Positions 38,415-49,601 of a stretch of DNA of 64,000 nucleotides are shown here, piece by piece. Positions within the stretch are counted from its first letter, which is position 1. Each line of letters opens with the position of its first letter. The position numbers and the translations under genes were made by a program. Below the pieces are notes generated by a model. That model was not told where the DNA came from. It saw only the letters and a list, made by a program, of their open reading frames with translations, and made no database searches. Source of the DNA: an uncultured Rivularia sp. (GTDB taxonomy: Bacteria; Cyanobacteriota; Cyanobacteriia; Cyanobacteriales; Nostocaceae); contig OY762007.1 in the NCBI GenBank assembly GCA_963665115.1, forward strand, positions 1,952,001 through 2,016,000, in the 5' to 3' direction.

Positions 38415-38615
38415 ATAGGGGATAGGGCATGGGGAATTGGTAATTGGGCATTAGGAGTAGAGAGTAGTAAGTAGTAAGTAGAGAGTTAATTTAAGATTAA
38501 TTATTCTCCCCCCTCTACCCCCTCTCCCCCCTCTACCCCCTCTCCCCCCTCTCCCCCCTCTGCCCTTGTCCCCTTGTCTCTCCATGCCCAATGTCCAATG
38601 CCCAATTCCCTTCTC
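38415..38615. repeat. Mixed STRR tracts
   Basis: GGGCAT/AGTAGAG/CCCCCTCT/CCAATGC units between convergent genes. Confidence 0.8.
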
Positions 38616-44155: not shown

Positions 44156-44244
44156 ACAGTCTGTTTTTCATCAACTTTTTATAAAAAGAAAAGCAATTTA
44201 CCGAGATATCGGGCAATATACTTAAGGCATATTTTTTAAATACA

Positions 44245-44385
44245 ATGATATTCTTTCAAGTAATAATGCCCGTGATTATTGGAACATCAATAGTTTCGCT
44301 GCAACCTTTCTCAGCAAAAGCTTTATGCTCCGTAGAAGTAGGAAAAATTGCTGAAGGTATTACTCTTTCAAACCCTATTAATTGA
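44245..44385 (+). pseudogene. N-terminal remnant of a secreted protease/TPR-type protein
   Basis: Signal-like sequence then AKALCSVEVGKIAEGIT, ending early. Confidence 0.35.
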
Positions 44386-44447
44386 TTACAAAGATAATTC
44401 TGGAAACGGTTGGGGGTAGTTATAAAAATTAGGTCAATTTAGTATGG

Positions 44448-44796
44448 TTAGCGACGGTAAGTACGGTAACGGCATACAGTTTTGTAACGACTACGGTAGC
44501 AGGTACGACGACGATAAACGCGAACCGGACGACGGTAAACCCGACGACGGTGGACCCCGACGAACGCGACGACGACTATGAGGGCGACGACGATAGCGAA
44601 CGCGACGACGAACGCGACGACGACGAACGCGGCGATAACGATCTGCTATTAACTCTTCTTTGAGTATTTCCGCTTGGATTTCTGCTACAGATTCTTGAGC
44701 AGTTTTTAACAATGCTGCACTAGCAGGAGGTGCCACTGGTAATATAGCTGAAGCTGCAACCAATGCTAAAGCTGCAAGTTTAATCTGTTTAAACAT
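44448..44796 (-). CDS. Secreted Arg-rich small protein (~115 aa after removing one base at CCCC ~44555)
   Basis: Signal peptide (ASA), acidic linker, then DRYRRVRRRR...RVYRRRTCYRSRYKTVCRYRTYRR-stop in the shifted frame. Confidence 0.7.
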
Positions 44797-45003
44797 CAGA
44801 TATTAAACCTTTATTTATCGATATAGTTATCTAGAATGATACACAAGTATTTTTACGGGTTTTCGGTAAGTTTTTGATTTGTGAGCTTTATTTGCAAAAC
44901 TTATTTAAAAGGATGCGCCAGAAAAGTCTAATTTCAAACTCTACCTGCCATTGCCGTACTGTCGGCAGTAGCACTCTTTATTGGCTACGAGAGTGATTAT
45001 TAT

Positions 45004-45301
45004 AGAAACGAGTCGAGGCTCAAAACTCCCATCTTTGAAGTGGGAGATGTAGAGCGAGGCAGGGCATTCATGCCCCAACATGGTACTATTTAATTGTCAG
45101 TATAAGACGTTAAAACCTACCGGGGGACTCTCGGAAAGTATACGCCCAAATCTCGAACCGACGAGTTGTAAGGAAACATCACTCCGCCCATTGTTGGCAA
45201 ACGGTGTGAGCCTGGGAACCCGACAGCCATGTGAGGATATTTCAAGCGAAAGCTGTCTAGGCTTGAAAGAATCTCCCATCTTCCAGGTGGGAGAGTGTCA
45301 A
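45004..45301 (+). mobile_element. Non-autonomous IS200/IS605 derivative: both ends plus the omegaRNA region, no ORF
   Basis: TTAT|left end with AAAA+CTCCCA-N9-TGGGAG hairpin; tnpB-3'-like ACCGGGGGACTCTCGGAAAGTATACGCC; right end GAAT+CTCCCA-N9-TGGGAG...TCAA. Confidence 0.8.
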
Positions 45302-45495
45302 CGACTTAGGATAATTTATTTTCTGGAAGTCCCTAAATTTGACGGGTTTTATATTTCGTAGTGCGTTAGCGTTCAGGTGGAGCGTGCGGCGAGCGCATAT
45401 CCGTTCACCGTAAGGTATTCCCGTAGGGTAGGACATACATCTTGCTCGCTCGTAGATAAATCATCCCATCAAAACGGCTGGAAATGGAGTACTAG

Positions 45496-45598
45496 TAGTC
45501 CTTTTCCAGCCGTTTTGATGGGTTGTAGAGACGTAGCAGTGCTACGTCTCCCGACGTTAGGTCGAAAACGAACCCTTCATAATTTATGCAATCGACCA
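45496..45598. mobile_element. IS630-type MITE (103 bp), flanked by CTAG
   Basis: TIR TAGTCCTTTTCCAGCCGTTTTGATGGGT; internal GTAGAGACGT...ACGTCTC palindrome. Confidence 0.8.
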
Positions 45599-45602
45599 CT
45601 AG

Positions 45603-45726
45603 TAGTCCTTTTCATTTGTTCTGACGGGTAAAGATGGGGAGGGGGAAGAGGGGGAAGAGAGGGTAGAGGGGGTAGAATAATCTTTTATTTTTTCTATACA
45701 CCCATCAGAATTTATGCAAAGGACTA
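45603..45726. mobile_element. IS630-type MITE (124 bp), flanked by CTAG, with STRR cargo
   Basis: TAGTCCTTTTCATTTGTTCTGACGGGT...ACCCATCAGAATTTATGCAAAGGACTA. Confidence 0.8.
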
Positions 45727-45730
45727 CTAG

Positions 45731-46983
45731 TAGTCCTTTTCATTTGTTCCGATGGGTTTTTATTCTATACTACTTATAGCAGCGATGTGAACTTTTAACT
45801 TCACGAGCAGATTGCGATCGCCAGTCAGATGGGTGTACTTACTATGAAGCATAAAATTGATCTTACAGCAGAACAAAAGCAACAACTACTTGATATTGTA
45901 AAAAAAGGTTCAAGTAATGCTAGAGAAATTCGTAGAGCGCATACGCTATTAATGGCTTATGAGGGTAGGACAGATAAAAGAATATCTAAAACTCTACATA
46001 TATCAATCCCAACTATTGAAAGAACTCGTAAACAATTCTGCACCGAAGGTTTAGAAATCACGCTTAAAGAACGTCCACGTAGTGGCAAACCACCTAAGTT
46101 AACTTCTACAGCAGAGGCATATTTAATTGCGACCACTTGCAGTAATCCACCAAGCGGTTATGCCCGTTGGACTTTAAAAATGTTAGCAGACAAACTTGTA
46201 AACTTAGAAGTAGTTGATAGAGTGAGTGAAACTACAGTTTTTCGTACTTTAAAAAAAACGAATTAAAACCTTGGCTAAAACAACAATGGTGTATCCCTAA
46301 AGTTAGTTCAGAATTTGTCTCAAAAATGGAAGATGTACTTGATCTATACGCTCAACCATTAGACCCCAATCCGTCCATTAGTATGTTTCGATGAAAAACT
46401 ATGCCCATTAATAGAGGATGTTTATGACTCTATCCCACCTGCGCCTAAAATCGATAAGAAACCAGGTAAAAAAGAAAAAATTGATTATGAATACGAGCGT
46501 AATGGAACTTGTAATTTGTTCGCATTTTTTGCTCCATATTTAGGATGGAGACACATCAAAGTTACTAGTAGAAGAACCAAAATCGACTTTGCGTACTGCA
46601 TGAAAGAACTAGTTGATATTCATTTCACTGATGCCGAAGTGATTCGATTAGTCATGGATAATTTGAACACTCATACAATCGCTTCTTTATATGAAGTATT
46701 TACCCCCGAAGAAGCCAGAAGAATCACAAAAAAATTAGAGATTCACCATACACCCAAACATGGCAGTTGGTTAAATATGGTTGAATCTGAGCTATCTGTA
46801 CTTGCGCGGCAATGCTTAAATCGACGAATTCCGAATGTCGAAACTTTAGAAAAAGAAGTTTCCATTTGGGAGGGCGATCGCAATGCAAACTCGGTTTGTG
46901 TAGATTGGCGTTTTCGTACAGAAGACGCTAGAAATAAGCTTTATAAAATTTATCCAACCCATCAAAACTAATGAAATGAACTA
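45731..46983 (+). mobile_element. IS630-family insertion sequence (1253 bp)
   Basis: Imperfect ~28-bp TIRs, CTAG on both sides, transposase inside. Confidence 0.92.
45844..46971 (+). CDS. IS630 transposase (orfA/orfB joined by a likely -1 frameshift at TTTAAAAAAAAC ~46248-46259; extra apparent indel at ~46365)
   Basis: HTH orfA (RPRSGKP, RWTL); orfB with CFDE, MDNLNTH, TPKHGSWLNMVE (DDE). Confidence 0.9.
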
Positions 46984-46987
46984 CTAG

Positions 46988-47091
46988 TAGTCCTTTTCCA
47001 GCCGTTTTGATGGGTTCGTTTTTCCCATAACCTTCGGGAGACGTTATGTATAACGTCTCTACAACCTGTCAAAACGGCTGGAAAAGGATTT
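46988..47091. mobile_element. IS630-type MITE (104 bp), inverted relative of 45496-45598
   Basis: Same TIR; the reverse complement of its interior matches that MITE. Confidence 0.8.
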
Positions 47092-47266
47092 TGGCTATTA
47101 GATTGGGGTTTTCAACCCCAGGCGGGTGTGCGATAAAACCTATTATATTTAGTAGGACAGACTATTAGATACAGAGAACGTAGAGTAAAATTTCACATTG
47201 TTATTAGCAGCGATCGCCATTTCCATTCAAAGCGACTTACTTAACTCACTGATAACTGATAACTGC

Positions 47267-49601
47267 TCAACAAGCTGTTTCCAAAATAGGTGAAGAAGAA
47301 GAATAATTAATTAAGCTAGGTTTGCCGAAGTGATAACCTTGTGCGTAGTCAATATTCAATTCTTTTAAAATATCAACGATATCTTGATTTTCAGCAAATT
47401 CTGCTATTGTCTTAACTCCAAGAGCTTTTGCTAAATAATGTATGGCCTGTACCATTGCTTTCGTAACAGTTTCGGTATGAATTTCTTTGATAAAAGAACC
47501 GTCTATTTTTAAATAGTCTACGGGAAGATTTTTTAAATAAGTTAGCGATGACATTCCTTTACCGAAATCATCTAAAGCGAAAGAACATCCCAAAGCTTTG
47601 AGAGTCTTTATAAATTTTGATGCTTGAGATAAATTATTAATCGCGATAGTTTCTGTAATTTCAAAACAGAACAGTTGTGGAGGGAGCTTAGAGTGTTGAA
47701 ACTTTTGATACAAATATCTAAAAAACTCATTGTCATTAAGAGATGCACCGGAAATGTTTACAGAAAAGCATACATTATCCCAACTTGTAAAGTTAGCATT
47801 AGTTAAATAATAAAATAAGTTATCAATTACCCATAAATCAATTCTAGGCATCATAGAATACAGATTAGCTATCTCTAAAAATTGTTCCGGCATAAGGATT
47901 TTACCGTTCTCATCTAATAGTCGAAGCAGAACTTCATAATGTATTTTGTTATTATCCTTGCCTAAAGGAACGATTGGCTGAGCGTACAAACGGAATTGAT
48001 TTTTTTCTAAAGCCTGACGTAATTTCTTTACCCATAATAGCTGAGAATCCTTTCTCGATTTTTCTCTAGCTATATCGTGCATATATACCTGTTCTCTGTT
48101 ACGTCCTTGTGCTTTTGCTAAGTATAAGGCATGGTCGGCTGCTTCTAATAATAAAATAGGATTGTCTTCGTTATTTGGAATAGAACCAGCAATTCCCATA
48201 CTGACGGTAACAGATGAAGATACAGAGGAACTACTATGAGGAATATTTAGTTCTTTTATTTTATTTCTAATTGCTTCTGCTACTTTCAAAGCACCTCTTG
48301 CTGGAGTATAAGGTAAAATAATCGCAAATTCTTCACCTCCATATCTAGCAACGCAGTCAGCCGGACGCTTTGCCATATCAGAAATAGCATCGGCGATTGT
48401 TCGCAAACATTTGTCTCCTGCTTGATGTCCGTATGTATCGTTGTAAGATTTGAAGCAGTCAACATCACACATAATTATAGATAACGGTGAAGGAATGCGC
48501 CGTAAACGATTCCATTCTTGAGTCAGTTTTTCATCGAAGAAACGACGATTAAAGACTTTAGTTAAAGGGGTCGCATAAAGCAAGTTGTTTTAGTTCTGTG
48601 TTGGCCGTACTCAGCTGATGATATAACCTTCCTTGTTGAATTCCAATTGCTAATTGATTTACTAACCTTTTTATAAATTGGATTTCTTCAGATTTCCATT
48701 TTCTGGTTGTATTGCATTGATGTACCGTAAGAAATCCCCACAAAAAGCTTGTTCTATCTGTTTGAGCCTCGTAATTTTTATTACTTTTGAAAAGAATTGG
48801 TATTATTAAGGCTGCTTTCACTTCAAAGTGCTGCAAATTATTTAGAAAAATAGTTTCCAAATTTGACTCTTCAATATCATCTATTGCTTTAATTTCACCT
48901 TTAATAAATTGGGCTTCATCTTTATCTTCAAGAAAACACTTATGAACAATGCTCTCTTGAGGTATTTCTGATATTCCAGGCTTTGTAACTTGCTCTTCAA
49001 TAGAACTAACTAAATTGTCTAAGCGACTGATAATAACACGGTCGCACTCCAAAAACTGTAAAATTTCTTTAGCAGCAGTTTTTATAATGAAATCAACGTC
49101 TAAAGAATCACGAATCCGTTCGGAAAGTTGAACTAATAGTTTTTCTTGCCGTGCTTGTTTTTGTAAAGTAGTGTTTTGTATGACTAAATTATGACGGCAT
49201 TTTTCTAGACTAATGTGAGTCTGAATGCGAGCAATTAATTCTTGTTTTTGAATCGGCTTAGTTACATAGTCTACAGCACCTAATTCAAATCCACGTATTT
49301 TATTGATACTATCCGACAAACCAGTCATAAATATTACAGGAATGTCTTTAGTTTTGTGATTATTTTTCAAACGACGACAAGTTTCAAACCCGTCTATCCC
49401 AGACATCAAAATATCTAGCAAAATCAAATCTGGCTTACTATATTCTGCACTTTTAAGAGCATTATTACCTGTTTGAGCCACTAGTACTTTAAATCCAGCC
49501 GAGCGTAAATGGCTAAATAAAACGTTTAAATTATTGGGAGTATCGTCAACAACTAATACTATTCCCTTATATTTATCAACAATCTCTTTTTTAGCAAACA
49601 T
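47267..49601 (-). CDS. REC-GAF-GGDEF-EAL diguanylate cyclase/phosphodiesterase (apparent +1 frameshift at GGGG ~48567)
   Basis: Receiver DLILLD; GAF WGFLTVHQC; ALCDP-LTKVFNRR junction; GGEEF; EVLLR; DDFG. Confidence 0.9.

Follow-up and report, generated by a model that had tools for sequence, protein, structure and literature searches.

An array of transposons and the question it raises

What makes five transposons stand end to end at a single place in a bacterial genome? This question is raised by a stretch of 64,000 nucleotides from an uncultured Rivularia sp. (contig OY762007.1 of assembly GCA_963665115.1). The whole stretch is called the window here, and it corresponds to positions 1952001–2016000 of genome G000, which is assembled as one contig of 8.69 Mb and has a G+C content of 37.9%. 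In an intergenic region at window positions 45322–47092, five abutting units of the IS630 type are found, which are miniature inverted-repeat transposable elements, known as MITEs, and one insertion sequence (IS). The units meet at four CTAG sites, and each neighbouring pair has one TA dinucleotide in common. The array is probably a chain of independent cut-and-paste insertions that has grown by preferential insertion at a TA beside a resident terminal inverted repeat (TIR). The constant feature of such junctions is the common TA, and CTAG is dispensable.

The junction sequence ACTAGTAGTCCTTTTC is present in exactly four copies on the + strand of the window, with CTAG at 45492, 45599, 45727 and 46984 (0.01 copies are expected from shuffles). 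On the − strand, three mirror-image near-copies lie at the same junctions. The lengths between and beside the CTAG sites are 103, 124, 1253 and 104 bp, which become 105, 126, 1255 and ~106 bp when counted from TA to TA. The TIRs of the units are related 28-mers, and all five units are flanked by TA. An earlier reading of this DNA, referred to below as the original prediction, had described the four-fold junction and the five abutting units with these lengths and with related TIRs of ~28 bp, and direct reading confirmed both.

Junctions between element ends across the genome

The ends of elements were located throughout the genome with weight matrices for two related groups of TIRs, group A (GTAGTCCTTTTCATT.GTT.TGATGGGT) and group H (GTACTCCACCACATTAATTCTGCGGGGT). 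At the thresholds used, the reversed genome, which served as the control, gave 4 matches for A and 8 for H. A TIR search by Hamming distance from six seeds was too noisy beyond 7 mismatches and was replaced by the matrices. For the rare CCAGCCG variant of the TIR, it was the matrix that was dominated by noise (control 458/691), and a Hamming distance of ≤6 was used. In the 8.69-Mb genome, 459 TIR ends of the two groups were recognised.

Among these ends, 83 tail-to-head pairs stand exactly 2 bp apart, and the two bases between them are TA in 78 cases. By TIR group, 46 junctions are A|H, 21 are H|H, 14 are A|A, and 2 include the rare C variant. As an addition to the original prediction, most of the junctions involve H, which is the larger of the two groups. 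When tail-to-head neighbours within 1 kb are considered (n = 116), the gap is 2 bp in 83 pairs, −1 in 12 and 5 in 8, and six of the eight gap-5 pairs contain TAGTA. A gap of −1 and a gap of 5 mark the two flanks of an element that inserted at the TA in positions 2–3 of a resident TIR. The exact or the 3-bp-shifted register is found in 103 of the 116 close neighbours, 20 of which are 3-bp shifts, and other gaps occur in 13. Only six of these neighbours are 12–1000 bp apart, and there are four candidates for nested insertion.

The tetranucleotide CTAG is found at 31 of the 83 junctions. TA flanks 184 of the 241 free ends and both sides of 19 of the 31 solitary units, and the context CTA|TAG is seen in 6 of these solitary units. 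At positions −3, −4 and −5, the flanks of free ends favour C (~45%), A and T, respectively. The original prediction had held that each insertion regenerates a CTAG that attracts the next one. Its core stands, as there is an excess of insertions beside ends and the insertions are independent (see below); the role given to CTAG does not, as it is TA that remains constant.

The pairing of ends yielded 144 units, which comprise families F0 (104 bp; 61 units), F1 (~126 bp; 34), F2 (14) and F3 (126 bp; 8) together with the ISs. Family profiles in nhmmer recovered 483 copies and fragments, with 67 full-length copies of F0 and 9 of F3. The length ranges from 103 to 106 bp in F0 and from 116 to 167 bp in F1. 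The TIRs of F0 and F3 match those of the window IS within a few bases. Both families are MITEs, since they are small, non-coding and multicopy, with IS-like TIRs and TA flanks. The paired units form chains, and there are 48 singles, 19 pairs, 7 triples, 4 fours, 3 fives and 1 six. Long open reading frames (ORFs) cover 75% of the genome but hold only 18 of the 459 TIR ends, which indicates that selection or gene avoidance is strong.

Insertion beside resident ends compared with chance

Because the ends avoid ORFs, a generous null model was confined to TA sites outside long ORFs, where 260 sequential insertions were simulated. Sites were weighted by a target matrix of 8 nt per side, built from the 184 TA-bearing free ends, and sites at element ends received whichever of the two TIR half-site weights was higher. 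This model gave 14.4 ± 4.0 junction-forming events (maximum 25), against 83 exact and 20 shifted junctions observed. With the whole genome as background, the expectation was 3.5 ± 1.9 events. The original prediction had asked whether abutment exceeds random targeting of CTAG; it is far more frequent than random targeting of TA, CTAG or TACTAGTA would give.

The same preference can be seen in how often individual sites are used. Outside long ORFs, an element end occupies 0.5% of the TAs that follow a natural TAC, 0.9% of those after [CG]TAC and 1.2% of those after A[CG]TAC. Where the TA lies beside a real end, a second element is present in 22–29% of cases. Natural sites are abundant beyond the territory of the elements, with 15862 CTAG, 1303 ACTAGT and 179 TACTAGTA, of which 3959, 388 and 59 lie outside long ORFs. 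The preference would depend on more than the terminal 5 nt of the end, which suggests that the transposase recognises the resident TIR and not a short motif.

The composition of the junctions indicates how they arose. The elements could be typed on both sides in 63 of the 83 junctions, and 20 combinations of family and end were found, with 32 in the same orientation and 31 in the opposite one. Junctions within one family comprise 12 L|R, 5 L|L and 1 R|R. Such a mixture of families and orientations argues for independent insertions and not for duplication.

Probable growth of arrays and their variation between species

In the chains of at least three units (n = 15), the identity to the family consensus is 0.881 for inner units and 0.825 for outer units (one-sided Mann–Whitney p 0.004). 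The p value is 0.012 without F3, 0.034 within F0 and 0.029 within F1. The higher identity of the inner units fits growth from the inside, as had been proposed for the window array. This array fits the same pattern, since its outer ends are decayed, its F3 unit is 98% identical to the consensus, and its IS is internal.

A comparison of orthologous loci, which the original prediction had suggested, found sister species empty or with shorter arrays. The genes that flank the window array are syntenic in six sister species, and the array is absent from all six. At the same spot, species G003 has 96 bp, as against 2.29 kb in G000, with flanks of ~91% nucleotide identity. In place of a five-unit array at genome position 2518320, five of five relatives have 45–308 bp without a recognisable end. 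At 4875265, a pair of elements joined through a single TA is found in G007 and G003, and in G000 four more units (F0, F2, F0, F0) sit exactly between the two, within the junction. The flank of G007 is here 94% identical to that of G000, and the right element is 93% identical. Two further array loci hold from 0 to 6 units depending on the species. The array at 4389645 was uninformative on unit gain, as the flanks of relatives match only 1–1.6 kb and 4.8 kb away. Their variation among sister species at fixed loci could make the arrays useful as strain markers.

Of the 27 genomes of the genus, 14 contain the perfect 16-nt junction GGASTACTAGTASTCC (9 copies in G008, 8 in G000 and 6 in G003), and its backwards control is present in one. 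The junction was found in none of 200 sampled genomes from 96 other genera of the order. This result restricts only these TIR tips to the genus and is compatible with arrays that have other TIRs in other genera.

The insertion sequences and a possible mechanism

The IS of the window (45730–46984, + strand, 1255 bp) is the sole full copy with A-type TIRs in G000. It encodes HTH_32 (E 3.8e-19), HTH_23 (E 3.1e-10) and DDE_3 (E 3.5e-17) domains, which is the combination of the IS630 family. Its arms (45718–45758 and 46956–46996) are 88% complementary, with TIR weight-matrix scores of 44.8 and 41.3. In blastn, it has 64–68% nucleotide identity to annotated IS630 family transposase genes on plasmids of Nostoc, Scytonema and other cyanobacteria. 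With its HTH and DDE_3 domains, the TA duplication and TIRs of ~20–30 bp, the transposon is a member of the IS630/Tc1-mariner group.

The N-terminal part of the transposase (45829–46266, + strand; HTH_32, HTH_23 and HTH_29) ends just past an A8 run at 46251–46258, and the frame resumes after a −1 shift (NELKPWLKQQWCIP...). The C-terminal part (46516–46971, + strand; DDE_3) lies in a frame that is open from ~46366 (PIRPLVCFDEK...). At 46362–46365 on the + strand, a CCCC run exceeds by one base the length that the reading frame needs. Public runs of the same organism differ here: this form is found in the assembly and in run X8, and CCC is found in contigs of run X6 and of metagenome run X1. Only the CCC form leaves the transposase frame open. 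In this assembly, the catalytic frame of the window IS is consequently not intact, being broken by the −1 shift at A8 and then by the extra C.

A second IS630-family lineage, F4, is present as three copies of 1309–1310 bp with H-type TIRs (G000:C1:708546-709855, 2371371-2372680 and 2431438-2432746), and its amino-acid identity to the window IS is 50–62%. All three copies have two ORFs that overlap at an A8 run in the −1 register, like the window IS. Frameshifting is on record in the IS630 family, according to extracts of PMC5009743. Some 430 of the genome's TIR ends are of the H type and are attributed to the MITEs of the F4 IS (F1 and F2). Each of the four full-length ISs has a MITE directly beside it, and three are bordered by MITEs on both sides. 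In run X9, from a strain without the window locus, a 99%-identical IS again passes through TA into an A-type TIR.

Candidates for the source of transposase are the window IS in the case of the A-type MITEs (F0 and F3) and the 1310-bp F4 IS in the case of the H-type MITEs. For both, expression would involve a −1 shift at the conserved A8 run. For ISY100, a member of the IS630 family, insertion at TA with TA duplication and cut-and-paste movement are described in the consulted part of PMC2170065. An insertion of this type would leave the new element with a TA at either end, and each event would add one more end-flanked TA. A junction would retain its TA between two ends and would hence remain a target. 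Because end-flanked TAs would multiply and the junction TA would persist, a seeded site could keep growing, often from the inside. A transposase bound to a TIR may capture the incoming transpososome. Alternatively, the catalytic complex may prefer a very long palindromic target, which sequence cannot separate from such tethering.

A wider claim can be put forward only tentatively, and we regard it as somewhat doubtful. The IS630/Tc1-mariner transposases of this genus might use resident TIRs as landing pads, and unrelated MITE families and ISs might co-assemble into self-seeding arrays that grow from the inside. Copies would then be funnelled into junk DNA and genes would be spared. The target immunity of Tn7, Mu and Tn3 is the reverse of such behaviour.

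Weighing the explanations

Several points weigh against preferential insertion beside resident ends. The null expectation is roughly quadratic in the number of insertions; if all 483 copies and fragments had been targets, the most generous null could yield ~50 junctions, and the excess would be smaller. Half-sites of 6–8 nt are used in 7–44% of cases, though they are few and are probably decayed ends. This high usage makes a very long sequence preference inseparable from recognition of the TIR. The attraction is a statistical inference from standing copies, which are also shaped by selection and loss. The difference in identity between inner and outer units is modest and comes from 15 arrays, and gain in G000 as opposed to loss elsewhere was decided by parsimony and not with a rooted tree. 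The extra base in the assembled window IS may mean that the IS is inactive here.

Targeting of a short motif would require no recognition of the TIR at all. CTAG or TACTAGTA would simply be the preferred site and would be rebuilt by the element tips (GTAG.../...CTAC). IS630 reportedly prefers a TA within 5'-CTAG-3', to go by the titles alone of Tenzen & Ohtsubo 1990 and 1991. All four window junctions are CTAG, and the bias of free-end flanks to C, A and T at −3, −4 and −5 points in the same direction. Nevertheless, this explanation is unlikely, since CTAG is seen in only 31/83 junctions and 6/31 solitary units, even though 3959 CTAG, 388 ACTAGT and 59 TACTAGTA sites are available outside ORFs and away from elements. 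Mimics of 3–5 nt of an end are used at 0.5–1.2%, as compared with 22–29% for real ends, and a model that includes the weight matrix of the target gives ~14 junctions for the 83 observed. It is highly improbable, too, that a few independent insertions were multiplied by tandem duplication, by unequal recombination between TIRs or by movement of composite blocks. Nine of the 14 F0|F0 junctions are tandem, blocks recur (for example, near-identical neighbours accompany two F0 units, one at 2745293 and one at 2745526), and the Bari1 arrays of Drosophila are ascribed to such processes in the consulted parts of PMC8834629 and PMC5932611. However, these processes do not account for 20 family and end combinations among 63 typed junctions, for the 32 same and 31 opposite orientations, or for the joining of different TIR groups at 46/83 junctions. 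The single TA at 78/83 junctions is what target duplication leads one to expect, and one locus differs among sister species by units of different families.

The strong depletion of ends in long ORFs (18/459, with 75% of the genome covered) would also be expected if insertion at TA were random and only hits in dispensable DNA persisted. Such survival in safe havens would produce clusters, but it would equally allow the ~10 internal TAs of each resident MITE and sites nearby. Of 116 close neighbours, 103 are instead in register; 6 pairs lie at 12–1000 bp and 4 are nested candidates. Even a null restricted to TA outside ORFs falls short by ~6-fold, and we give this explanation little credence. 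The chance that a long-read assembler collapsed or chained the repeats is negligible. Short-read contigs break at repeats and none of them spans the whole array, which speaks for such an artefact. Exact unitigs at single-copy depth extend across junction 2 (55–56 nt, 45572–45627) and junction 3 (38 nt, 45706–45743) in each of three runs, and a 2.7-kb contig crosses junction 1 from unique DNA to 45519. None of these has ≥31 letters on both sides of a junction, so that they support the assembly only weakly. The precise TA throughout the set of 83 junctions adds to this, as does the presence of the 16-nt junction in 14/27 genomes, including assemblies of hundreds of contigs. Given the crossing unitigs and the junctions across the genus, an assembly artefact is very unlikely.

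The units of the window array and its surroundings

The array begins with a decayed outer MITE of ~171 bp (45322–45492). Its right TIR is intact (GTACTCCATTTCCAGCCGTTTTGATGGG when read inward), and its left TIR is partly deleted near 45322–45345; the stretch 45334–45363 matches the inner TIR part of another copy. The interior contains a small repeat with 5–6 copies elsewhere. Junction 1 has its common TA at 45493–45494 (CTAG at 45492–45495) and is followed by an F0-family MITE of 105 bp (45495–45599, − strand), which is reversed relative to the family model and has an nhmmer score of 93.2 over model positions 1–103. Within it lies a GTAG-tagged hairpin, GTAGAGACGTAGCAGTGCTACGTCTC (45526–45551, + strand). 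After junction 2 (TA at 45600–45601, CTAG at 45599–45602), an F3-family MITE of 126 bp (45602–45727, + strand) contains a G-rich short tandem tract, (GAGGGGGWA)n, at 45637–45677 on the + strand. The IS described above lies between junction 3 (TA at 45728–45729, CTAG at 45727–45730) and junction 4 (TA at 46985–46986, CTAG at 46984–46987). The last unit is an F0-family MITE of ~106 bp (46987–47092, + strand; nhmmer score 78.4, 76% consensus identity) in the opposite orientation to the first F0 unit. It carries a second loop variant of the GTAG-tagged hairpin, GTAGAGACGTTATACATAACGTCTC, on the − strand (47039–47063). The outer tip of its right TIR is decayed, with GGATTTT in place of GGACTAC.

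The decay of the outermost ends and the presence of independent repeats in the MITE interiors (the hairpin in two opposite units and the G-rich tract) had both been noted in the original prediction and were seen again. Its comparison with a repeat-spacer array is a visual analogy only. The units differ in family, orientation and length (105–1255 bp), and there is only a TA between them.

The sole Rfam matches in 44200–47400 were to the mir-2 microRNA, above its gathering threshold, at 45462–45527 (47.4 bits) and 46953–47017. They were rejected as look-alikes in a bacterium, because two abutting TIRs form a hairpin-shaped palindrome.

To the left of the array, the 300 bp at 45000–45320 are unique and contain a pair of short hairpins, CTCCCATCTTTGAAGTGGGAG and CTCCCATCTTCCAGGTGGGAG. 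This stretch is missing from the syntenic spot of G003, and only 45012–45054 has a second copy in G000. Directly to the right (47087–47130), a small repeat, GATTTTGGCTATTAGATTGGGGTTTTCAACCCCAGG..., has ~6 related copies elsewhere in the genome. Beside the array, at 47267–49601 on the − strand, a gene for a response-regulator/GAF and GGDEF-EAL protein is broken up in G000 into two overlapping ORFs, one of 347 aa and one of 438 aa. The open frame is likewise only 440 aa in G003, and the match in G014 has one internal TAA. In nine other sister species, the gene is one frame of ~780–820 aa (635 in G016, on a contig of 2.9 kb). The split in G000 is likely a frameshift or a real split.

Cargo repeats

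The hairpin carried by the F0 units, GTAGAGACG(N2-16)CGTCTC, has 362 oriented copies in the genome, of which 232 lie outside any MITE. With its GTAG end, short palindromic stem-loop and high copy number, it has the form of a GTAG-tagged repetitive extragenic palindromic (REP) sequence. Nine matches to Y1_Tnp above the cut-off are present in the genome, and some of them may be REP-associated tyrosine transposases (RAYTs) flanked by the hairpin. The copies of F0 carry at least three loop variants of the hairpin, and the variants TAGCAGTGCTA, TTATACATAA and TAAAATTTTA are common to free and MITE-borne copies. This suggests swapping of hairpins or the existence of MITE subfamilies.

The (GAGGGGGWA)n tract occurs at 34 other loci without TIRs, as against 9 full-length copies of F3. 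Nonamer tracts of the form (GAGGGGGTA/GAGGGGGAA)n are found at these TIR-less loci (for example, G000:C1:7944754-7944822 and window 38476–38543) and are often followed by AACTCCT-type heptamer repeats. As most hairpins and G-rich tracts lie outside MITEs, these elements are not their main vehicle, and the suggestion that the MITEs spread the short repeats around the genome is not supported in the form in which it was made.

Significance and comparison with known systems

If these transposases actively direct insertion to resident ends, this would explain how cyanobacterial genomes tolerate hundreds of MITE copies, given that long ORFs hold only 18 of the 459 ends. The Tc1-mariner/IS630 superfamily, whose choice of target is usually described in terms of TA and local DNA shape, would gain an end-targeting mode. 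Such insertion would also provide a bacterial model for the seeding of tandem arrays by transposons. Such arrays break short-read assemblies.

No description of prokaryotic IS630-type MITE arrays that share a TA was found in the literature searched, which did not cover Elhai et al. 2008, Zhou et al. 2008, Lin et al. 2011 or Tenzen & Ohtsubo. The words 'tandem' and 'nested' are absent from a 2024 review of prokaryotic MITEs (PMC10969869).

Several cyanobacterial elements resemble the components of the arrays. The Nezha MITE of Nostoc and Anabaena is ~130–170 bp long and has TIRs in common with ISNpu3, which is an IS from a related strain (Zhou et al. 2008, after a summary in PMC3184786). The pairing of the H-type F1 (116–167 bp) with the 1310-bp F4 IS resembles it by description, and the part of the summary that was consulted makes no mention of arrays. 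GTAG-tagged REP families are reported from Nostoc and Anabaena in the consulted section of Di Nocera et al. 2013 (PMC3733652). The F0 hairpin is like them in its GTAG start, its palindromic form and its 362 copies, but this likeness concerns the cargo and not the array.

In other systems, transposons are known to join end to end. IS30, which belongs to another family, inserts beside its own inverted repeats (IRs). In the excerpted account of PMC9333248, this IR-targeting is strictly left to right (IRL-IRR), the junctions are reactive and unstable, and movement is copy-out-paste-in by way of circles and dimers. The arrays described here are similar, since insertion occurs directly beside a resident terminal repeat, the junctions are 2 bp apart, and the resident end is a second class of target beside hot spots. 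Preferential insertion next to ends was found here as well (22–29% versus ≤1.2% of sites, and 83 junctions versus ~14), whereas the strict IRL-IRR order was not (5 L|L, 1 R|R and 12 L|R). Unlike IS30 in that account, the IS630/Tc1-mariner arrays mix families and orientations, with L|L, R|R and L|R junctions, and they persist.

Among eukaryotic elements, the dimers of the P element and hobo are double insertions with the target duplication kept in the junction, according to the extracts of McGurk & Barbash 2018 (PMC5932611). The tandem junctions of G000 likewise keep the target-site duplication. Those dimers form at the best-matching target sites and are rare and of one element, as far as the extracts describe them, while here at least four MITE families and two ISs form chains of up to six paired units, with 83 junctions in 8.7 Mb. 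In rice, more than 10% of MITEs are multimers, adjacent or nested beyond expectation (Jiang & Wessler 2001 as summarised in part of PMC5172404). These plant multimers, too, are read there as independent insertions that prefer other MITEs. Unlike these mostly nested multimers, the elements of the prokaryote studied here are joined nearly exclusively end to end through TA. The Tc1-type Bari1 forms head-to-tail arrays, the origin of which is called unclear in the consulted part of PMC8834629.

With regard to the target choice of IS630 itself, the TA duplication and CTAG are alike in the window, but genome-wide a resident end predicts use better than CTAG does. Self-end-directed or double insertion is already known from such systems, and the arrays built here from IS630-type MITEs are a variant of it.

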